NCBI RefSeq assembly: GCF_044324785.1
Contig: NZ_CP172127.1
Strand: one strand, 5' to 3'
DNA: 64,000 nt
From: Escherichia coli
Lineage (GTDB): Bacteria > Pseudomonadota > Gammaproteobacteria > Enterobacterales > Enterobacteriaceae
Shown piece after piece: positions 12,677 through 58,632 of this stretch. The translations under genes and the position numbers were made by a program. The notes below the pieces were generated by a model. That model saw only the letters and a program-made list of their open reading frames with translations. It did no database searches and was not told the DNA's origin. Position 1 is the stretch's first letter; each line of letters begins with the position of its first letter.

Positions 12677-13452
12677 TTTTCAGGATAATCTATTGGGGGG
12701 AGGGGATCTTTTCCTCTAAATCTAATTGCACCCACGCCTTGTTTGTCAGACCATTCGCCATTTGCATCCTGACGATACCAGTGATAATCCCCACCCATTC
12801 CTATAAAATTGTGAGGACGAATAAACAATTGAGCTTTATGGTAACCAGATGGACAACTCCCATTATCTAAATCCTTGGCACCATCATTTTTTGACGCTTC
12901 AAAAATACTACTACAAGTGAGTTTAGAAAACTCTTTTCCAGATAATTCTCCAGGTTGTAATCCTCCGCCGCCAAAAATCCTACTCCCAGGATTTCCATAC
13001 CTATTTAGAGCATATGAATAGCAATTATTTACGGCAAGATAATACGCATCTGAATTTAGTTCTCGATTGAATACTGGAGCAGGTTTATCAATTAAGCCCA
13101 GCGGATCAATAGAATAGGTTGGATGTATGGAAGCATATACATACTGATTCCACCCGCCTTCCAGCCCAATCGGATCCTGAGTGATATACCGCCCCTGCAG
13201 CGGGTCATAATAGCGGTGGCGGTTGTAATACAGGCCGGACTCCTCATCATACTGCTGCCCCGGCAGACGGATAAGCTGCTGCAGGTGCTGCGGGTTCTCT
13301 TCATTCAGCAGGTTGCCCCATTCATCATATTCTGCGCACCATTCTGTTGCCCCGTCAGGGCTGATAAGCGTCAGCGGCAGGCCGCGATAGTCGCAGTGGT
13401 AGAGGTGGATTATTCGCAGTGATCTATATGCCAACGTCATCTTATTTTTCAT
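12649..13452 (-). CDS. Orphan Rhs C-terminal fragment (core remnant + DPLGL + variable toxin domain)
   Basis: N-terminal ~115 aa nearly identical to the end of the RhsC core; DPLGL boundary encoded at 13093..13107; downstream ~147 aa unique AT-rich sequence; lacks the remainder of the Rhs core. Confidence 0.6.
13161..13410. repeat. Direct repeat copy A of Rhs core 3' end
   Basis: About 250 bp that aligns in register with 14481..14730, with roughly 18 mismatches by eye. Confidence 0.8.
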
Positions 13453-13504
13453 CTACTCCAACGAGTAGACAAGTTTTTTATTAAACCATTTATACCTTTT
13501 ACGA

Positions 13505-14008
13505 TTAAATTTTCTTATGTAATAGAGGTGAATAATCTTCCCAAAAATCCATACAAGCTTTACTTGCATAAAAGAATCCAGCGTCTGATTCATAAGACAT
13601 AAACTGTGCAATAATAGATAGTTGTATATCTGAAAAATTAAAAACAAAATTCAAAAAATCATCGTGATCCCGATACTCAGGACATAAATATTGTTGAATA
13701 AAATCGGATTCAAAAACCCAAAAATCATTCTTATTAAACAACGAGGCATAAATATACAGAGGGATGTAATAGCAGAATACTTTCTCAGGGAGGAATGTAA
13801 TTCCTAACTCTAAAGCATAAGAGTCATCCTTTATTTTAAAATTGTTGGCTATTTCATTCCATTGTTTCTTTTGGAAAAAATTATATACAATATCCAGTTC
13901 CTCCAGCCCTGTAATATCATTTGAAATATGAGGTAATGGCTGGCATGGGAAATGAATCATAAGTTCATCATAGACTGCACTCTCGTTAGAGAAAATTATT
14001 TTTTTCAT
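13505..14008 (-). CDS. Candidate RhsC immunity protein (RhsI-like), cytoplasmic
   Basis: ORF 13505..14026; ATG at 14008 overlaps rhsC stop as ATGA; no signal peptide; strongly AT-rich. Confidence 0.55.
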
Positions 14009-17000
14009 TTTATTAAGCCACTGCAATCAGCTGCTGTTTTATATGCTTTATTCTCTTCTTCCATATGGGCCTTATCTCCACCACCAAAGCACTGATTATT
14101 AATCTGCTTTCTGACCGAAGCGCACGCCAAATTTATCTCGTACCGTCTCAATATTTCTTTTCTCAGCATCTGAGGAGCGCAAGCTCTAGACTGGTTACAT
14201 AATCTGTTTTTTTCATTTTGTAAGTCACTCAGGTTCTGGGGACTACAGTTACCACCAGGATTTACACCTGACTTATGTTCATCTGTTAATTTGTCGGCTT
14301 CTGGATTAACTTTACGGCCATATTGATCTCTGCGTTGTTGCCCACTTTGGATAACACCACCTGATGAAAACAAACCGCAACTCATCAGTGCTACAACACC
14401 AAGAATTAACGGATTTAACCCTTGTGGGTCTATCTCTGAGATCGGATTTAACGGATACTGATAAAAATTCCATCCCCCCTTCAGTCCAATCGGATCCTGA
14501 GTGATATACCGCCCCTTCAGCGGGTCATAATAGCGGTGGCGGTTGTAATACAGGCCGGACTCCTCATCATACTGCTGACCCGGCAGGCGGATGAGCTGCT
14601 GCAGCTGGTGCGGGTTCTCTTCATTCAGCAGGTTGCCCCATTCATCGTATTCTGCGCACCATTCTGTTGCCCCTTCCGTGCTGACAAGCGCCAGCGGCAG
14701 GCCGCGATGGTCGCAGTGGTACAGGTGGATTTTTCGCGCCGGCGTGTACACCGGGTCCATCTGGTTTTGTATCTGCTCCACCGTCAGGCCGCACGATGCC
14801 AGCCAGCGGCGGCTTTCCTCACTCACCCGGTCAGCCAGGATTTCACTTTCCAGCCGGTCGAGCATCTGCACCAGCACCGGCGGGAACACCACACTGCCAC
14901 CGTCTTCACCGCCGGACTGCTGAAGCGCATCCGCCAGGCTGCGGCGCTGCGTTTTCGCCAGCTCACCGGTGGCGGTTTCGACCCTGATGAGTGGCGTGAA
15001 GCTCCCCGGCTGATAAACCGTCTGGATGCGGGTTCTGTCGTTCTGTATCGTGGTCAGCCGGTCGCCGTCCCAGCCGTACCAGGTCACTTCCGGTTTCCGT
15101 GACAGCGACATCCAGCCCGTCAGGTCCCGTTCACGCCGCCACACCCGTTTTGCCACCCTGCGGCCCAGCGGGTCGTAAAGATAGCGACTTTCGACCAGCG
15201 GCTCTGCATATTGTGTCCGCGTGTAGTGCACCAGCCGGTGCCGGCTGTCGTAATGGTACTGGTGAGTCCGCTCATCATCCGTGCGGATAACCCCTTCCGG
15301 GATGAGGTCGGTTTTCTCTGTCAGCCTGCCGTGACGGTCATACCGGTAAAGATAGTGCGCGTCACGGGCGATACGGTTATCCGGCCACATGCTGAGGGTG
15401 CTGTCCGGGTGCAGCTCCGGGTCGGGCAGGCGGTTGCCTGCCGGGTCCGTGGCATACGGGATGCGGATATCAAGGTTCGCTGCCGTGGTGTGGACGCCGG
15501 TCAGCCTGCCGGTGTCGCTGTAGCTGTAACTCCGGGTCTGGCGCGGGCTGCTGATGCGGATGAGTTCGCCGTTGTCGTTCCAGGTGTAATCGCGGTCATA
15601 CTGCAGGCTGTTCAGGTGCTGGCTCTGTAACTGCCCGGCAGAGGTATAAGCGGTGGTGAGTTCATAACGGCCGAAGCTGCGCAGCGTTTCCCGGTGCAGG
15701 CGGTCGCGGGTATACTCCACCAGCGGTGTGTCGCCGAGTTTCATGCCTGCCAGCCAGCCGCTGCCGTAAGTCAGCCATTCCACGGCGGGCAGGCTGTCCG
15801 GTATACAGCGGTTCGCCAGCCCCTGCGCGTTGTACGCATGTCTGGTTTCATGCTGCCAGAGCAGTGCTTCCGTCTGCGGGTGATGCACCGTCTGGCGCTC
15901 ACCGGTCAGGCGGCCTTTCTCATCATACCCGTAATGCACCGTCACCCGGTGGCCTTCGCTGAGATGGCTGATGCCTGTCAGCCAGCCGCGTTCGTCATAC
16001 TGCCACTGCTCTGCAGGTTCACCCTTCACGGTACGCTGCGTGATGCGGTCTGCTTCGTCATAGTGCCAGTGGGTGACCAGCCCCTCATCCTCGCTGCGGA
16101 TAAGTTTGCCGGTCAGGTCGTGGTGATAACGCTGTGTACGGCCGTCAAAGCCGGTTTCCTGTATCAGCCGGTCGAGTACATCGTAACGGAAGGTGGTGTG
16201 GCTGCCGTTTTCACTGGTCAGGCGGATGACCCGTCCGGCAGCATCGTATTCCATACTGCGCGTCAGACCGCCCTGCGTGGTACGGATGGCCTTTCCCCAC
16301 GCATCGTACTGTGTCCCGTTTCTGCTGCCGTCCGGGGCAATGACGGCGGTCAGGTCACCGGCGGCGTTGTATTCATACCGCGTTTCATGGCCCTGCATGT
16401 CTTTCACCGCAATTAACTGTCCACGGCTGTCGTATGCGCGGTACTGGCTCAGGCCTTCCTCGCGGTGCACCGCCGTCACCTGACCAAAACGGTCATGGTC
16501 ATAACGGGTTACATAACCGGAACAGTCAGTGACGGTCAGCAACTGACCGTAACGGCTCCATGTCATGGTTTTCCGGCTGCCGGTGGCATCTTCCGTTGCG
16601 CAGGGTAAGTCACTGTGTGGATTATCATAACGGTAGCGGGTGATATCGCCGTTGTGTGCGGTTTCCTGAATCAGACGGCCGGATTCATCATATTCCCGGC
16701 GCAACTCCAGCCCGTCAGTCCCGGTGGCTGACGTTAACTGGTTGTGGTGGTTATAGTAAAACGCCGATGCCCTGCCATCCGGTGTGGTGATGCGCGTGAT
16801 GAGTCCCGTCACCACATCCGGGCTGTACTCAGTCGTCCGGCCTGCGGCATCCGTCTGTGCCTTAAGCCTGCCCACCGCGTCAAACTGACTCTGCGTGACG
16901 CTGCCGTCCGCGTGTTCCTTTTTCACCACCCGCTTCAGCCCGCCTTCGCCCTGCGTGTGCAGGACTTCACGGCGGTCCAGGCTGTCGGTGATGGTGATGT

Positions 17001-18156
17001 GGTCTTTCTCATACTGATACGTGTAGCTTAAGCCTGCCGGGTTTAGCTGTTCTGTCACCCGCCCGTCACTGTCGTAACGGTAACGGATTTCCGGCCGGCC
17101 CGTGTGACGGTGCGCCACCATCCGGCCCCGGTATTTATCATCGTAAGTAAAGCTGCGCACCTGTGTGCCGCTGCGGTCATACACCGCCGCCAGTTCGCCG
17201 CGTGGCGTCCAGCCATAGCGTACCAGCGGCGCGGCTGGCAGGTTGTCCGGATATTCCGGGTCGTGCGTCAGCCACACGGCAGACAGACGGATGCCGTTGT
17301 CCCGGCCATATTCGGTGTAACCCGGCAGGGTATCAGGAAAAGCGGACGGTTCCGCCCCGCCGGAAATGGCCTGCTGCCGGGCCTCTTCTGCCCGCAACGC
17401 CTGCGTGGTCAGTACCAGCCGGAAGTGACGCCCGGCACCATCCGTCACGCCGGTGATTTCGCCGCTGAATTCGCCGCCAGCCTCACGGTGGAACGTCTGT
17501 GTGCGCCCGAAGCGGTCCACCAGCCCGGTCAGTACCCGGTACGGCGGCAGTGGCGCAGGCAGCACCTCATCCGCCTCCGGCACCCGCTCACACCAGCCGA
17601 GTACCCACCACGGCCCCTGCGGACTGTTCGTCGCCAGATAACGATGCGGACTCAGGCGAAGCTCTTCCGGCAGCGCCTGCCAGAGTGCGGCCAGCCGGTG
17701 ACCTTCATCCAGTTTCGCCACGCCGCCGCGCACCAGCCAGAGTGACTCGCTGCGGCTGTAACCGTCCTCACCGGGAAACAGGTGCTCAAAATACAGGCTT
17801 CTGCCGCCGTTATCACTGAGTATCAGTGTGTTATCGCGCAGCTGTAAGCGGATATCCGCAGGCATTTTCCAGCCGGGGCCGAGGCTCCCCACCGGCGCGG
17901 GCGTTTTTGTCCGGTAACTGCTGTAGGTGCGGGAGAGGATGAACGGCAGCGGGCCGGGCAGGGCAAGGTCGGTTTCTCCGGGAAGGACCTTCGCACCGAG
18001 CAGCGGATTGACCGGATGGCCGGACGTCACCCCGCCGGGGCACACCGAACAGGCCACGCCGGTGGGGGCACCAATACGTACCCCGGCTGAACCCTGAACA
18101 ATGCTACCGCCATACTGCGTCATGTCGCCCTGACGCGCCGCCGGTTTTCCGCTCAT
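14005..18156 (-). CDS. rhsC: Rhs family polymorphic toxin (PAAR-like N-terminus, YD-repeat core, C-terminal toxin domain)
   Basis: 1383-aa ORF; N-terminus [25 protein letters not shown]; many YD-type repeats; DPQGL encoded at 14416..14430; position between ybgA and ybfA/kdp matches the rhsC locus. Confidence 0.9.
14481..14730. repeat. Direct repeat copy B of Rhs core 3' end (inside rhsC)
   Basis: Partner of 13161..13410. Confidence 0.8.
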
Positions 18157-18345
18157 CTGCTCATCCTTGTTTTATCGGGTTATTTGTCTGCTGACAGGCG
18201 AAACCCTACAGATTTATAAGAAAGCCTTAAGTGAGATATCCGTCAGATAGAAACAATTAGGAAAATATTTATATATGTTTCATGAATATATGTTTCGATT
18301 GGTATAACGGTGTCTAAATATTCCTCTGAACATCTTCCTGATACA

Positions 18346-18378
18346 AAAAAACCGCCAGCGTTTCCGCTGGCGGTTTTC
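18346..18378. terminator. Hairpin terminator downstream of ybfA
   Basis: A-run, CCGCCAGCG-TTTC-CGCTGGCGG, T-run; bidirectional in form. Confidence 0.55.
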
Positions 18379-18399
18379 AATGTATTCAGAACTCAGCAA

Positions 18400-18606
18400 T
18401 CAGTAAAAATCACCAGTTGCCTTTTCTGCCTGATCCATCCACACCGGTTTCTCGCTGGTTTTCGACCAGACGCGGTGCAGGTAGCTGTAAAAGCGGGCGC
18501 GGTCTTTCCAGAAAAGCATGAAAGGCAGCGCCAGAACGCCCGCTGCAACCGCATAAGTACGGCGTAAAAAGATAAGCCATGCAGGATATTCTCTGTAGAG
18601 TTCCAT
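18400..18606 (-). CDS. ybfA: Small membrane protein (DUF2517)
   Basis: 68-aa [36 protein letters not shown], divergent from kdp operon. Confidence 0.8.
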
Positions 18607-18821
18607 ACTTTTCTCCCCCTTTTGTATCTACCCGGTGAGGTGAATGGCACCGGAAAAATGAATTTGTTTATCTGATGAAAATAGTACCGCCTTTTGTGTA
18701 ATTTTACTACTCATCCGACCACTTATTTTTGCTTATTGATGGTTTATTTACATTCACCGTGTAATTAAGTTACACAAAAGTTAAATTAATACTAACCATC
18801 AGTTAAATCATGGCTTTTGCC

Positions 18822-18845
18822 ATTTTTATACTTTTTTTACATCCC
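18822..18845 (+). promoter_or_regulatory. KdpE operator of the kdpFABC promoter
   Basis: CATTTTTATACTTTTTTTACATCCCGCCCG matches the T-rich KdpE-binding region as I recall it, about 80 bp upstream of kdpF. Confidence 0.55.
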
Positions 18846-18923
18846 GCCCGAAGATTTTTGCGAAATCTTTGCAGCCAGAATTCTACCCTTCCGGTATCAC
18901 TTTTAGGCCACTGGAGGTGCACT

Positions 18924-19013
18924 GTGAGTGCAGGCGTGATAGCCGGCGTGTTGCTGGTGTTTTTATTACTGGGTTATCTGGTTTATGCCCTGATCAATGC
19001 GGAGGCGTTCTGA
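18924..19013 (+). CDS. kdpF: K+-transporting ATPase small subunit KdpF
   Basis: 29-aa hydrophobic peptide (M)[28 protein letters not shown]; GTG start 6 nt after GGAGG; stop TGA overlaps kdpA ATG. Confidence 0.75.
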
Positions 19014-20686
19014 TGGCTGCGCAAGGGTTCTTACTGATTGCCACGTTTTTACTGGTGTTAATGGTGCTGGCACGTCCTTTAGGCAGCGGGCTGGCGCGGC
19101 TGATTAATGACATACCTCTTCCCGGTACAGCGGGTGTTGAACGCGTACTTTTTCGTTTACCTGGCGTCTCTGACAGTGAGATGAACTGGAAGCAGTATCT
19201 CTGTGCCATTCTCGGCCTGAACATGCTGGGGCTGGCGGTGCTGTTTTTTATGTTGCTCGGTCAGCACTATCTGCCGCTTAATCCACAGCAGTTGCCGGGG
19301 CTGTCGTGGGATCTGGCGCTGAATACTGCCGTCAGCTTTGTCACCAATACCAACTGGCAATCTTACAGCGGTGAAACCACGTTGAGCTATTTCAGCCAGA
19401 TGGCGGGCTTAACGGTGCAAAACTTTCTTTCTGCCGCCAGCGGGATTGCGGTGATTTTTGCCCTCATCCGTGCGTTTACCCGCCAGAGCATGAGCACACT
19501 CGGGAATGCCTGGGTCGATCTGTTACGCATCACGTTATGGGTGCTAGTCCCTGTGGCGTTGTTGATCGCACTGTTTTTTATTCAACAAGGTGCACTGCAA
19601 AACTTTCTGCCCTATCAGGCGGTGAATACCGTTGAAGGAGCGCAACAGCTGTTACCCATGGGTCCGGTGGCTTCTCAGGAAGCGATCAAGATGCTCGGTA
19701 CTAACGGCGGTGGCTTCTTTAATGCCAACTCGTCGCATCCGTTTGAAAACCCAACCGCACTGACCAACTTCGTGCAGATGCTGGCGATCTTCTTGATCCC
19801 AACAGCGCTGTGCTTTGCCTTTGGTGAAGTGGCAGGCGATCGCCGCCAGGGGCGCATGTTGCTGTGGGCGATGTCAGTGATTTTTGTCATCTGCGTAGGC
19901 GTGGTGATGTGGGCAGAAGTTCAGGGTAATCCTCATCTGCTGGCACTGGGTGCGGACAGCAGCATCAATATGGAAGGTAAAGAGAGCCGTTTCGGCGTGT
20001 TGGTCAGTAGCCTGTTTGCGGTCGTGACTACGGCGGCGTCCTGTGGCGCGGTGATTGCGATGCATGATTCGTTTACCGCTCTCGGCGGCATGGTGCCGAT
20101 GTGGCTGATGCAAATTGGTGAAGTGGTGTTCGGCGGTGTCGGTTCTGGTCTTTACGGCATGATGCTGTTTGTCCTGCTGGCGGTGTTTATTGCCGGGCTG
20201 ATGATTGGTCGTACGCCGGAATATCTGGGTAAAAAAATCGACGTACGCGAGATGAAACTGACCGCACTGGCGATTCTGGTCACCCCGACGCTAGTGCTGA
20301 TGGGCGCGGCGCTGGCAATGATGACCGACGCCGGACGTAGCGCCATGCTCAACCCGGGCCCGCATGGTTTTAGCGAAGTGCTGTACGCCGTGTCGTCCGC
20401 CGCTAACAACAACGGCAGCGCCTTTGCCGGATTAAGCGCCAACTCCCCATTCTGGAACTGTTTGCTGGCGTTCTGCATGTTTGTTGGTCGCTTCGGGGTG
20501 ATTATTCCGGTGATGGCAATTGCTGGTTCGCTGGTGAGTAAAAAGAGCCAACCCGCCAGCTCCGGCACACTGCCTACGCACGGCCCGCTGTTTGTTGGCC
20601 TGTTAATCGGCACCGTGTTGCTGGTTGGCGCACTGACCTTTATCCCTGCCCTGGCGCTTGGTCCGGTGGCGGAATATCTCTCCTGA
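19013..20686 (+). CDS. kdpA: K+-transporting ATPase subunit A
   Basis: Start [14 protein letters not shown] within ORF 18869..20686; 557 aa. Confidence 0.95.
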
Positions 20687-44573: not shown

Positions 44574-44602
44574 TTGACGCTGCAAGGCTCTATACGCATA
44601 AT
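44574..44602 (+). promoter_or_regulatory. Candidate sigma70 promoter of the tRNA operon
   Basis: TTGACG, 17-bp spacer, CATAAT, followed by GC-rich discriminator GCGCCCCG typical of stringently controlled stable-RNA promoters. Confidence 0.45.
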
Positions 44603-44641
44603 GCGCCCCGCAACGCCGATAAGGTATCGCGAAAAAAAGAT

Positions 44642-44718
44642 GGCTACGTAGCTCAGTTGGTTAGAGCACATCACTCATAATGATGGGGTCACAGGTTCGA
44701 ATCCCGTCGTAGCCACCA
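44642..44718 (+). tRNA. metT: tRNA-Met (CAU), elongator type
   Basis: 77-nt cloverleaf-compatible sequence, anticodon loop CTCATAA, 3' CCA encoded. Confidence 0.9.
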
Positions 44719-44726
44719 TCTTTTTT

Positions 44727-44811
44727 GCGGGAGTGGCGAAATTGGTAGACGCACCAGATTTAGGTTCTGGCGCCGCAAGGTGTGCGAGTTCAAGTCTCGC
44801 CTCCCGCACCA
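44727..44811 (+). tRNA. leuW: tRNA-Leu (UAG)
   Basis: 85-nt sequence with long variable arm, anticodon loop TTTAGGT, CCA end. Confidence 0.9.
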
Positions 44812-44834
44812 TTCACCAGAAAGCGTTGTACGGA

Positions 44835-44909
44835 TGGGGTATCGCCAAGCGGTAAGGCACCGGTTTTTGATACCGGCATTCCCTGGTTCGAATCCAGGTA
44901 CCCCAGCCA
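44835..44909 (+). tRNA. glnU: tRNA-Gln (UUG)
   Basis: 75-nt sequence, anticodon stem CCGGT/ACCGG with loop TTTTGAT, CCA end. Confidence 0.9.
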
Positions 44910-44924
44910 TCGAAGAAACAATCT

Positions 44925-45001
44925 GGCTACGTAGCTCAGTTGGTTAGAGCACATCACTCATAATGATGGGGTCACAGGTTCGAATCCCGTCGTAGCCACC
45001 A
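44925..45001 (+). tRNA. metU: tRNA-Met (CAU), elongator type, second copy
   Basis: Identical to 44642..44718. Confidence 0.9.
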
Positions 45002-45049
45002 AATTCTGAATGTGTCGAATAAGTTCGGCAAATTCACAAACCAATTTGT

Positions 45050-45124
45050 TGGGGTATCGCCAAGCGGTAAGGCACCGGATTCTGATTCCGGCATTCCGAG
45101 GTTCGAATCCTCGTACCCCAGCCA
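45050..45124 (+). tRNA. glnV: tRNA-Gln (CUG)
   Basis: 75-nt sequence, anticodon loop TTCTGAT, CCA end. Confidence 0.9.
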
Positions 45125-45128
45125 CATT

Positions 45129-45156
45129 AAAAAAGCTCGCTTCGGCGAGCTTTTTG
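45129..45156 (+). terminator. Intrinsic terminator of tRNA operon
   Basis: AAAAAAGCTCGCttcgGCGAGCTTTTTG. Confidence 0.8.
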
Positions 45157-56961: not shown

Positions 56962-58632
56962 ATGGATAATGCAGAACTCGCCATTGGTATCGATCTCGGC
57001 ACTACCAATAGTTTAATTGCCGTCTGGAAAGACGGTGCCGCGCAATTAATTCCAAATAAGTTCGGTGAATATTTAACACCATCCATAATTAGCATGGATG
57101 AAAATAATCATATTTTAGTCGGAAAACCCGCTGTATCACGGCGCACTTCGCATCCGGATAAAACGGCAGCGTTATTTAAACGTGCAATGGGCAGTAATAC
57201 CAACTGGCGGTTAGGCAGCGACACATTTAACGCGCCAGAACTGTCCTCTTTGGTATTACGCTCATTAAAAGAAGATGCCGAAGAATTTCTGCAACGTCCG
57301 ATTAAAGATGTGGTGATCTCCGTTCCGGCTTATTTCAGCGATGAACAACGCAAGCATACCCGTTTAGCAGCGGAGTTAGCCGGGTTAAATGCGGTACGCT
57401 TAATTAATGAACCCACAGCAGCTGCGATGGCATATGGCCTGCATACGCAACAAAATACCCGCTCACTGGTTTTTGATCTCGGTGGCGGCACGTTTGACGT
57501 CACGGTGCTCGAATACGCCACGCCGGTGATTGAAGTTCACGCCTCCGCTGGCGACAACTTTCTTGGCGGCGAAGATTTTACTCATATGCTGGTGGATGAA
57601 GTTTTAAAACGCGCCGCAGTGGCTAAAAACATGCTCAACGAAAGTGAGCTGGCAGCCCTGTACACCAGCGTGGAAGCGGCAAAATGCGGCAATCAATTAC
57701 CGCTGCAAATTAGCTGGCAGTATCAGGAAGAAACGCGTGAGTGCGAATTTTACGAGAACGAACTGGAAGATTTGTGGTTGCCGCTGCTCAATCGCTTGCG
57801 AGTGCCGATTGAACAGGCGTTGCGCGATGCACGTCTGAAGCCAAGTCAAATCGACAGTCTGGTGCTGGTTGGCGGCGCATCACAAATGCCGCTGGTGCAG
57901 CGAATCGCCGTACGTCTGTTTGGCAAATTACCATATCAAAGTTACGACCCGAGCACCATTGTCGCGCTGGGCGCAGCAATCCAGGCCGCCTGCCGCTTAC
58001 GCAGTGAAGATATTGAAGAGGTGATCCTCACTGATATTTGCCCTTACTCGTTGGGTGTTGAAGTTAACCGCCAGGGCGTTTCCGGCATTTTCTCGCCGAT
58101 TATTGAACGAAACACCACTGTACCGGTGTCGCGTGTAGAAACTTACTCGACCATGCACCCGGAACAGGATTCAATTACGGTTAACGTCTATCAGGGAGAA
58201 AATCACAAAGTTAAAAATAACATTCTGGTGGAATCCTTCGATGTGCCGTTGAAGAAAACCGGGGCTTATCAGTCGATTGATATTCGCTTTAGTTATGATA
58301 TCAACGGGTTGCTTGAAGTTGACGTGCTTCTGGAAGACGGCAGCGTTAAGTCCAGAGTCATTAATCACAGTCCTGTAACATTGAGCGCACAGCAGATTGA
58401 AGAGAGTCGGACGCGGTTATCCGCATTGAAAATTTATCCGCGCGATATGCTCATCAACCGTACCTTTAAAGCCAAACTGGAAGAGTTGTGGGCGCGGGCG
58501 CTGGGTGACGAGCGAGAAGAGATCGGCCAGGTGATCACCGATTTTGATGCGGCGTTGCAGTCAAACGATATGGCCCGCGTCGATGAAGTTCGGCGACGGG
58601 CGAGCGATTATTTGGCAATTGAGATCCCTTAA
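56962..58632 (+). CDS. hscC: Hsp70-family chaperone HscC
   Basis: 556-aa ORF with Hsp70 N-terminal motif IGIDLGTTNS and DLGGGTFD. Confidence 0.95.
   Translation: MDNAELAIGIDLGTTNSLIAVWKDGAAQLIPNKFGEYLTPSIISMDENNHILVGKPAVSRRTSHPDKTAALFKRAMGSNTNWRLGSDTFNAPELSSLVLRSLKEDAEEFLQRPIKDVVISVPAYFSDEQRKHTRLAAELAGLNAVRLINEPTAAAMAYGLHTQQNTRSLVFDLGGGTFDVTVLEYATPVIEVHASAGDNFLGGEDFTHMLVDEVLKRAAVAKNMLNESELAALYTSVEAAKCGNQLPLQISWQYQEETRECEFYENELEDLWLPLLNRLRVPIEQALRDARLKPSQIDSLVLVGGASQMPLVQRIAVRLFGKLPYQSYDPSTIVALGAAIQAACRLRSEDIEEVILTDICPYSLGVEVNRQGVSGIFSPIIERNTTVPVSRVETYSTMHPEQDSITVNVYQGENHKVKNNILVESFDVPLKKTGAYQSIDIRFSYDINGLLEVDVLLEDGSVKSRVINHSPVTLSAQQIEESRTRLSALKIYPRDMLINRTFKAKLEELWARALGDEREEIGQVITDFDAALQSNDMARVDEVRRRASDYLAIEIP

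Follow-up and report, generated by a model that had tools for sequence, protein, structure and literature searches.

The question raised by this rhs locus is whether a direct repeat that brackets the toxin and immunity genes of a full-length rhs gene could serve as the site at which a neighbouring orphan toxin is recombined onto the core of that gene. It was addressed by using a 64-kb stretch of Escherichia coli DNA (hereafter the window) together with a survey of 5,426 complete E. coli genomes. Two lines of earlier work provide a basis for such an analysis: a model of C-terminal displacement via circular intermediates in enterobacterial rhs genes (Jackson et al. 2009, PMC2935791), and the description of orphan modules that are found fused to full-length genes elsewhere (Poole et al. 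2011, PMC3150448).

By synteny (kdp-ybfA / rhs / ybgA-phrB), the locus corresponds to the classical rhsC site, at which a full-length rhs gene encoding 1383 aa is located on the minus strand (14005..18156). Its core (aa 1-1247, DNA 18156-14416) is covered over this whole length by the NCBIfam model NF041261 RHS_core with a score of 2628 bits (cut-off 2000), and ends in the PxxxxDPxGL motif (aa 1238-1247, here DPQGL). It is followed by a variable tip of 136 aa (tip A; aa 1248-1383, DNA 14415-14005), which matches Pfam Ntox16 (PF15523, E=1.4e-12, model positions 2-84 of 85). DUF6531 was detected at aa 46-123, and a match to the PAAR motif reached only E=0.18; T6SS genes, VgrG, or a clear PAAR were not seen within the 64-kb window. 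The next gene, immA (13505..14008, minus strand), overlaps the rhs stop codon and encodes a protein of 167 aa without a signal peptide, which shows a weak match to Pfam DUF6714 (E=3.9e-5) and is identical at 167/167 residues to WP_000720081.1 of strain TUM1886. From position only, we infer that this is the immunity protein of the main tip. The rhsC element of E. coli K-12, whose gene order we take to be rhsC-ybfB-ybfO-ybfC...ybfD-ybgA, occupies the same site between ybfA and ybgA and has a core of the same family, whereas the tips of the window are different ones, its one orphan is intact, and an ISAs1 element is lacking. ISAs1/H-repeat remnants (ybfD) are observed at the distal end of the rhsC element in many strains.

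Downstream of immA, an orphan rhs-CT ORF of 267 aa (12649..13452, minus strand) begins at an ATG in the spacer that separates the two modules. Over aa 1-120, it matches the terminal part of the core profile (model positions 1143-1261 only), aa 12-120 being core-like through the motif DPLGL, and aa 121-267 form a second tip (tip B) that is unrelated to the main tip and contains conserved Cys144 and His224. For tip B, no meaningful match was found in Pfam (even at E<=10), in NCBIfam beyond the core, or in PDB by sequence; only remote fold similarity could be detected, with a weak resemblance to peptidoglycan hydrolases, and the tip belongs to a widespread, unannotated putative toxin family that may be papain-like, in the manner of cell-wall amidase effectors of the NlpC-P60 type (Tae/Tse1-like). 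The adjoining gene, immB (12290..12664, minus strand, 124 aa), overlaps the orphan stop codon and has an N-terminal Sec-type signal sequence, as read from the sequence, and no Pfam or NCBIfam match. It is identical at 123/124 residues to WP_000494465.1, which is encoded after the fused Rhs in strain 1190. No disabling change was found in the window orphan tip or immB, both of which are near-identical or identical to alleles of full-length Rhs proteins. That the orphan is a potentially activatable toxin, as stated in the original prediction, is supported by its intact tip, in which 147/147 residues are identical to those of the fused tip of strain 1190 and of tips naturally fused in approximately 39 genomes. 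The putative toxicity of tip B and its specific neutralisation by immB are suggested by position, conservation, and the conserved Cys/His pair. The tip and immunity region is low in GC (30-41% vs 62% for the core).

The two modules share a direct repeat of 271 bp. Copy 1 (14467..14737, minus strand) covers the final 271 bp over which the main core keeps high identity (aa 1140-1230, ...IHLYHCD...), and copy 2 (13147..13417, minus strand) is the core fragment heading the orphan (aa 12-102 of its ORF). The copies differ by 20 mismatches (92.6% identity) and lie in frame with each other, with a start-to-start spacing of 1320 bp, a number divisible by 3, and the genes on the minus strand. A repeat of about 250 bp with some 18 mismatches had been reported earlier; pairwise alignment of 13161..13410 with 14481..14730 reproduced the ungapped similarity and the direct orientation, with the corrections that this portion contains 16 mismatches (93.6% identity) and that the full extent is 271 bp. 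Just beyond both ends, in-register identity is at chance level (3-15/30), and no further copy is present in the 64-kb window. In an independent short-read assembly of the same lineage, a contig breaks 19 nt past the repeat, as is usual for assemblies at genuine repeats. The copies bracket the Ntox16 tip and immA, in line with the claim that the repeat flanks the primary toxin/immunity pair. Both also encode the core 3' end, and the claim that they do so up to DPxGL needs to be amended: the nucleotide repeat stops 15 nt past the first DPIGL (...GGWN), before the core-terminal PxxxxDPxGL, which sits 51-54 nt past the repeat end in already diverged DNA (DPQGL with its end at 14416 in the main gene, DPLGL with its end at 13093 in the orphan). 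The longest perfectly identical block between the copies spans 60 bp (13198..13257, counterpart 14518-14577), and no Chi site was found in or adjoining the repeat. Between immA and the orphan core fragment lies an AT-rich spacer (13418..13504, 31% GC), which meets the core homology at a sharp junction at 13417/13418 that recurs in 243 E. coli genomes. Together with one repeat copy, immA, and the Ntox16 tip, this spacer makes up a unit of 1320 bp (13418..14737, minus strand), which is present in the window and not in the fused alleles described below.

A fused architecture, in which the full core carries tip B, was identified at the same chromosomal site in approximately 39 of the complete E. 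coli genomes, and the comparison of this locus across genomes is thereby in favour of the original prediction. Window positions 4119-13417 correspond to positions 1-9298 of the fused-allele sequence and window positions 14467-19999 to its positions 9028-14543, the window being the strain 1190 allele plus exactly one 1320-bp unit at the same site. Moreover, a crossover in the repeat performed in silico deletes the Ntox16 tip and immA and fuses the orphan to the full core in frame, giving a product of 1395 aa without stop codons, just as had been proposed. H110, considered as an additional state of the locus, was rejected, as it merely carries an IS21 insertion in the main tip.

The locus is probably a standard Rhs main-plus-orphan locus, with the 271-bp repeat as the footprint of tip exchange by homologous recombination. 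In such a process, the single-toxin and two-module states would interconvert by one crossover inside the repeat, for which the 60-bp identical block would be the easiest place. Campbell-type insertion of a 1320-bp circle would displace tip B into the orphan position, and the reverse crossover would excise the 1320-bp unit and join tip B to the full core in one reading frame (1395 aa), so that the orphan toxin could be encapsulated and delivered. The recombination mechanism behind the term toxin-displacement, which had been applied to this deletion, is thus supported, and the term itself is less apt, since the displacement of Jackson et al. is the insertion of a new tip, whereas deletion and fusion would be its reverse reaction, or orphan activation.

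Several known systems provide a context for this reading. In Salmonella, recombination between main and orphan copies was demonstrated experimentally via a 522-bp region of 95% identity, and the recombinants kept a copy of the parental locus, which fits the authors' model of recombination after duplication, plain deletion losing immunity (Koskiniemi et al. 2014, PMC3967940). The window resembles the rhs-main (STM0291)/rhs-CT-orphan (STM0292) locus of Salmonella Typhimurium LT2. There too, the full-length rhs gene and its immunity gene precede an orphan that combines a core 3' stretch with another tip and has a separate immunity gene; fusion of the orphan tip to the core for deployment, through recombination in the stretch that both share, was shown there and is here predicted from sequence (PMC3967940). 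It differs in its shared stretch, which has 271 bp and 92.6% identity rather than the values given above for Salmonella (PMC3967940), in its tips (Ntox16 in the main gene, and an unannotated Cys/His orphan tip with a signal-peptide immunity protein), and in its setting (an Escherichia lineage, the rhsC site, and no adjacent T6SS genes in the window). As in the model of Jackson et al., a dissociated tip with a core fragment lies downstream of an intact gene, the tip/immunity region is low in GC, and direct repeats enclose the core fragment, tip, and intervening gene, an arrangement expected to be left by the predicted circle (PMC2935791). Unlike in that model, whose circle is still hypothetical, the alleles before and after the event can be compared base for base at one site, where they differ by 1320 bp (PMC2935791). 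Orphan cdiA-CT/cdiI and rhs-CT/rhsI modules likewise keep coding sequence upstream of DPxGL, are followed by an immunity gene, and have the same tip fused in other strains; the window does not differ from them in kind, the fused counterpart being found here at the orthologous locus of the same species (PMC3150448).

These comparisons also bear on how readily a switch might occur. Since a plain deletion takes immA too, a productive switch would, from the Salmonella experiments, need either prior duplication of the locus or tolerance of immA loss. Moreover, the repeat is shorter and more diverged than that of Salmonella, so that recombination may be infrequent, with mismatch repair expected to act against it. 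The orphan being intact, the lineage of the window would still have the switch option. Most E. coli with the same main toxin have lost this option through ISAs1 truncation.

Evidence for exchange between lineages was found in the DNA of the cassettes. The region 12250-14371 is 99.6-100% identical to that of E. coli genomes whose flanks are 92-98% identical to the window, and in ybgI-dtpD-phrB no complete E. coli genome is more than 98.1% identical to it. The cassettes are thus more alike than their flanks, which indicates a recent lateral exchange of cassettes. For the 1320-bp unit itself, identity amounts to 99.9-100% between backbones that diverge by 2-8% in the genes next to it. It is conceivable, and proposed here only tentatively, that this unit is a discrete cassette moving among Escherichia lineages as the hypothetical circle of Jackson et al., that the window and strain 1190 form an exact occupied/empty pair, and that the window lineage is the only one seen so far in a reversible two-toxin state.

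A different fate of the orphan is suggested by its distribution. The same main tip, with the same two diverged repeat copies and the same junction, was found in 243 complete E. coli genomes, in all of which an ISAs1 remnant truncates the orphan at window position 12872, before His224, and immB is gone. About 337 further genomes contain only a 302-bp immB relic adjoining ybgA. Among the 5,426 complete genomes of E. coli, none was found with an intact orphan beside this main tip, and when species-representative genomes and metagenome contigs were scanned for the exact pattern, the state of the window gave 0 matches. One other contig, found via a protein match, is 100% identical to the window and therefore of the same lineage. 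Within the genomes surveyed, the intact orphan beside this main tip is kept only in the lineage of the window. All three patterns (the truncated orphans, the immB relics, and the lack of intact neighbours) would be compatible with an orphan that is a decaying relic, shunted aside by the arrival of tip A, and a repeat that records a past event rather than serving as a switch. Such an interpretation appears rather unlikely, however: the orphan tip and immB of the window are undamaged and identical or nearly so to alleles that are expressed in full-length Rhs form, sequence conservation is higher in the cassette than in its flanks, and a Salmonella orphan of like design can be activated (PMC3967940).

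The composition of the repeat copies raises the possibility that the event ran in the opposite direction, the approximately 39 single-toxin alleles being deletion products of a two-module ancestor in which orphan activation has already been fixed in nature. In 13258-13412, copy 2 is a variant with 14 sites at which it departs from all the full-length cores that were examined, and this orphan-type core (at least 99% identity) occurs only in orphan fragments, in 239 genomes, and never on a full-length gene. The fused alleles resemble the main gene at the 14 sites and the orphan from 13162 downstream, which is the SNP composition expected of a crossover at approximately 13163-13257. Given this mosaic and the absence of the orphan-type variant from full-length genes, the fused allele is not a simple unmodified parent of the window orphan. 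On the other side, eight fused alleles chosen to span the junction diversity all (8/8) share one junction class and a private T13237, which is found in neither window copy nor either TUM1886 copy; these alleles do not, therefore, derive recently from a locus of the window type. Several independent crossover points were not found among these eight, nor was any sign of recurrent events. Furthermore, an identical mosaic would result if a Campbell insertion had its crossover in this interval, and the SNP mosaics would thus not settle the direction of the natural event, as insertion and deletion both predict the same pattern. The core 3' ends are also homogenised among rhs paralogues (more than 3,500 genomes match at 90-95%), and any ordinary core that is joined to tip B would have the same hybrid appearance as the fused alleles. 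Fixed deletion products are hence regarded as possible, with the greater part of the probability lying against them.

The orphan might also act without recombination, with immB kept as protection from neighbours that carry tip B, or with an internal promoter and start site, provided by the core fragment, from which the orphan tip and immB are produced within the cell as a toxin-antitoxin-like pair. A promoter of this kind, P2, is known from Salmonella, where main and orphan copies alike carry it in conserved core sequence shortly before PxxxxDPxGL; similar sequences have been reported from E. coli and Shigella (PMC7043789). In the window, immB is intact, and the orphan ORF has a candidate start of its own, the ATG at 13452 with GGAG 3 nt upstream. 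Nevertheless, this role seems improbable. A consensus scan, a crude test too weak to exclude a promoter, detected no minus-strand site resembling a sigma-70 promoter inside the repeat; immB carries an export signal and tip B weakly resembles peptidoglycan hydrolases, and a periplasm-acting tip without a signal peptide would probably be harmless in the cytoplasm. In addition, immB has been lost from most E. coli lineages.

Finally, an origin of the repeat in chance similarity or in duplication during assembly is hardly conceivable and was rejected, given 92.6% identity over 271 bp, sharp boundaries, 20 differing sites, and the same arrangement in 243 complete genomes.

Reading the locus as a main-plus-orphan locus shaped by tip exchange introduces no new principle, as orphan Rhs/CdiA modules, their kept core homology, and recombinational activation were described in 2009-2014. 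It is an unusually clean natural example, with an exchange unit that is defined to the nucleotide. One and the same site is available for base-by-base comparison in three states: with a single toxin, with a second module whose orphan is intact, and with a second module whose orphan has been killed by an IS. The locus is therefore convenient for measuring switching rates and for seeking, in E. coli, the circular intermediate that has been proposed. Attention is also drawn to an unannotated, widespread putative toxin domain, with a predicted exported immunity protein, as a reserve weapon. If the mobile-cassette reading were true, the circular intermediate, which has never been observed, would become directly testable.

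The rhs locus occupies the classical rhsC site, with kdpFABC-ybfA on one side and ybgA-phrB-dtpD on the other, and all of its genes are on the minus strand. The main rhs gene (18156-14005) encodes a 1383-aa Rhs protein, whose N-terminal region carries DUF6531 and whose residues 1-1247 match the NCBIfam RHS_core equivalog (2628 bits vs. a cut-off of 2000). The core terminates at residue 1247 (DNA 14416) and is followed by tip A, 136 aa matching Pfam Ntox16 (E=1.4e-12). The immunity gene presumed for this tip (immA) is a 167-aa ORF (14008-13505) that overlaps the rhs stop codon, matches DUF6714 weakly, and lacks a signal peptide. After an AT-rich spacer of 87 bp (13504-13418), core homology restarts abruptly at 13417 (...IHLYHCD...) and extends through DPLGL (residue 120 of the orphan ORF, DNA 13093) into tip B (12649-13092), 147 aa unrelated to Ntox16. 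The presumed immunity gene of this orphan tip (immB, 12664-12290) is a 124-aa ORF that overlaps the orphan stop and begins with a Sec-type signal sequence. The usual Rhs pattern is seen in the GC content, which falls from 62% in the core and 58% in the core fragment of the orphan to 30-41% across the tips, immunity genes, and spacer.

A PAAR motif match ahead of DUF6531 at the Rhs N-terminus (18097-18156) was non-significant (E=0.18), and no T6SS, vgrG, or chaperone genes were found within the 64-kb window. Outside the locus, the window and E. coli strain 1190 are collinear except for small differences: about 610 bp that carry a hypothetical gene in strain 1190 are missing at ~26.7 kb, and the tRNA Met-Leu-Gln array (44.6-45.1 kb; 44600-45130) differs in length. 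The segment 56882-64000, which has no counterpart in strain 1190, contains an Hsp70-like gene (56962-58632), paralogous gene pairs downstream of it (58692-60847 and 61513-63671), and a gene for a small Sel1-like repeat protein (60949-61503). We take this segment to resemble the hscC-djlC-ybeU/djlB-ybeR-ybeQ-type region of K-12.

The two 250-bp segments described as similar in the original prediction give a gapless alignment in which 16 positions differ (93.6% identity). By repeat finder and self-BLAST, the full direct repeat covers 13147-13417 (orphan copy) and 14467-14737 (main copy); the copies are 271 bp long, differ at 20 positions (92.6% identity), and are spaced by 1320 bp, which is divisible by three. 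Its boundaries are sharp, since in-register identity falls to 3-15/30 just beyond either end, and no third copy was found in the 64-kb window. The longest identical block, of 60 bp, lies within about 13163-13257. Both copies had been said to encode the core terminus up to DPxGL, which holds through the first DPIGL; the nucleotide repeat ends 15 nt past this motif, at GGWN, and the terminal PxxxxDPxGL comes 51-54 nt beyond the repeat end, in already diverged DNA. Chance similarity or an assembly artefact can be dismissed as the origin of the repeat, because 243 complete E. coli genomes share the same diverged copies and the same junctions. Over 8.8 kb, a short-read contig from an independent public assembly (DBAHND010000100.1, GCA_044158945.1) matches window 4649-13436 at 100% identity and stops 19 nt past the orphan repeat copy; it represents the window's own lineage, and the assembly broke at the repeat.

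Window 4119-13417 aligns with positions 1-9298 of the strain 1190 locus and window 14467-19999 with positions 9028-14543. One 271-bp segment of strain 1190 thus matches both window copies, and the window equals the 1190 allele plus exactly one 1320-bp unit (core fragment, tip A, immA, and spacer). The final 147 residues of the 1391-aa Rhs protein of strain 1190 are identical to tip B, and immB is identical at 123/124 positions, so the orphan module in the window is intact. The anticipated fusion of the orphan toxin to the full-length core is borne out, as a simulated crossover between the copies gives an in-frame 1395-aa protein and the same architecture occurs in 39 E. coli genomes. Judged by sequence, E. 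coli does produce such a protein from this locus.

The proposed comparison of the locus across related genomes, carried out on 5,426 complete E. coli genomes, revealed three further states, including the predicted core-tip B fusion. In the first, complete tip B and immB are present (about 40 genomes), with tip B joined to a full-length core and ybgA directly after in 39 of them. The fused-type allele of one genome, E300010, has a ~2.35-kb internal core deletion (corresponding to window 15238-17590), and in its annotation a DUF6531 fragment abuts a core fragment. In the second state (243 genomes), tip A and immA are present, and an ISAs1 (ybfD) remnant ends the orphan prematurely at window 12872, with loss of the conserved His224, the distal half of tip B, and all of immB; in TUM1886, positions 5005-6000 of the locus stand in place of window 12063-12871. 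This state clearly descends from a window-like one, as it has the window's spacer/core junction and is 99-100% identical over 12872-14371. In the third state (about 337 genomes), only a 302-bp relic remains beside ybgA (window 12120-12421), comprising the 3' end of immB and the spacer that follows it. In WP4-W18-ESBL-09, an IS21-family element (istA/istB) lies inside the Ntox16 tip of the main gene, which is another route to inactivation of the locus. Tip A together with an intact orphan, as in the window, was found in 0 of the 5,426 genomes, and neither species-representative genomes nor metagenome contigs gave a match in exact-pattern scans.

Junctions were compared in eight fused alleles (tip B on a full-length core). 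All eight have the main-copy base at each of the 14 differing sites in 13258-13412 and orphan-linked sequence from 13162 toward the tip, the composition that a crossover in about 13163-13257 would give. The same mosaic is predicted if a circle inserts in Campbell fashion through a crossover in this interval, and likewise if any ordinary core is joined to tip B. A T at 13237, common to all fused alleles examined and absent from both copies in the window and TUM1886, indicates that these alleles represent one old junction class, neither recent nor repeated derivatives. Moreover, the orphan-type core variant (at least 99% identity) occurs in orphan fragments only (239 genomes), and the best full-length cores reach about 95%; thus, no sampled fused allele can have given rise to the window's orphan directly and without change. 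The sequences lead us to conclude that the window state and the fused state are probably linked by recombination in the repeat, in either order.

Lateral exchange is also suggested. Window 12872-14371 differs from TUM1886 by 2 mismatches, with ybfA-kdp 92-98% identical, and window 12250-13249 differs from strain 1190 by 2 mismatches, with ybgA-phrB 94-98% identical. Both cassettes (12250-14371) are 99.6-100% identical to strains whose housekeeping flanks (9000-12249, 17100-19400) show 92-98% identity, and they look recently exchanged onto a divergent backbone. As ybgI-dtpD-phrB has at most 98.1% identity to any of the 5,426 genomes, the window comes from an Escherichia lineage that is somewhat divergent. 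Such conservation fits the view of Jackson et al. that strains exchange tips as conserved units (PMC2935791).

Jackson et al. (2009) proposed that the core fragment of a dissociated tip recombines with the main core to release a circle (core fragment, tip, and intervening genes), which integrates elsewhere by homologous recombination and displaces the resident tip (PMC2935791). According to Poole et al. (2011), orphan modules keep sequence upstream of DPxGL and occur in other bacteria as fusions to full-length genes (PMC3150448). In Salmonella, a 522-bp, 95% identical region recombines to place an orphan tip on rhs-main, with selection during passage; recombinants retained a parental copy of the locus, which fits the authors' duplication-first model, proposed because plain deletion would lose the main immunity gene (Koskiniemi et al., 2014; PMC3967940). 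The reading as toxin displacement therefore invokes an accepted mechanism, with two refinements: "displacement" strictly denotes the insertion step, and loss of immunity must be reckoned with. The repeat in the window falls short of the Salmonella region in both length and identity (271 bp, 92.6%), so switching is likely to be less frequent.

The orphan might also act without recombination. In Salmonella, an internal promoter within the conserved core drives transcription of rhs orphans, which behave like toxin-antitoxin pairs (PMC7043789). Here, the orphan ORF begins with an ATG of its own (13452), which GGAG precedes by 3 nt, and a crude consensus scan of the repeat found no promoter on the gene strand. 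Export of the immunity protein points to a periplasmic target for tip B, in which case a cytoplasmic product would be harmless. It is possible that the orphan is kept for immB alone, shielding against tip-B-armed neighbours; however, immB has been lost in most lineages. Tip B belongs to a widespread family of C-terminal toxin domains (827 representative clusters) with no Pfam or NCBIfam model and the invariant residues N-C...C...C...H..R; its AlphaFold model is confident, and matches to papain-like/NlpC-P60/Tae-like folds are only weak.

In general, the original observation is confirmed and its interpretation is supported. The system is of a well-known kind, of which the window is a new and unusually clean example: it provides a nucleotide-exact occupied/empty comparison at one site, and among the genomes searched, its lineage alone keeps the intact two-toxin state.
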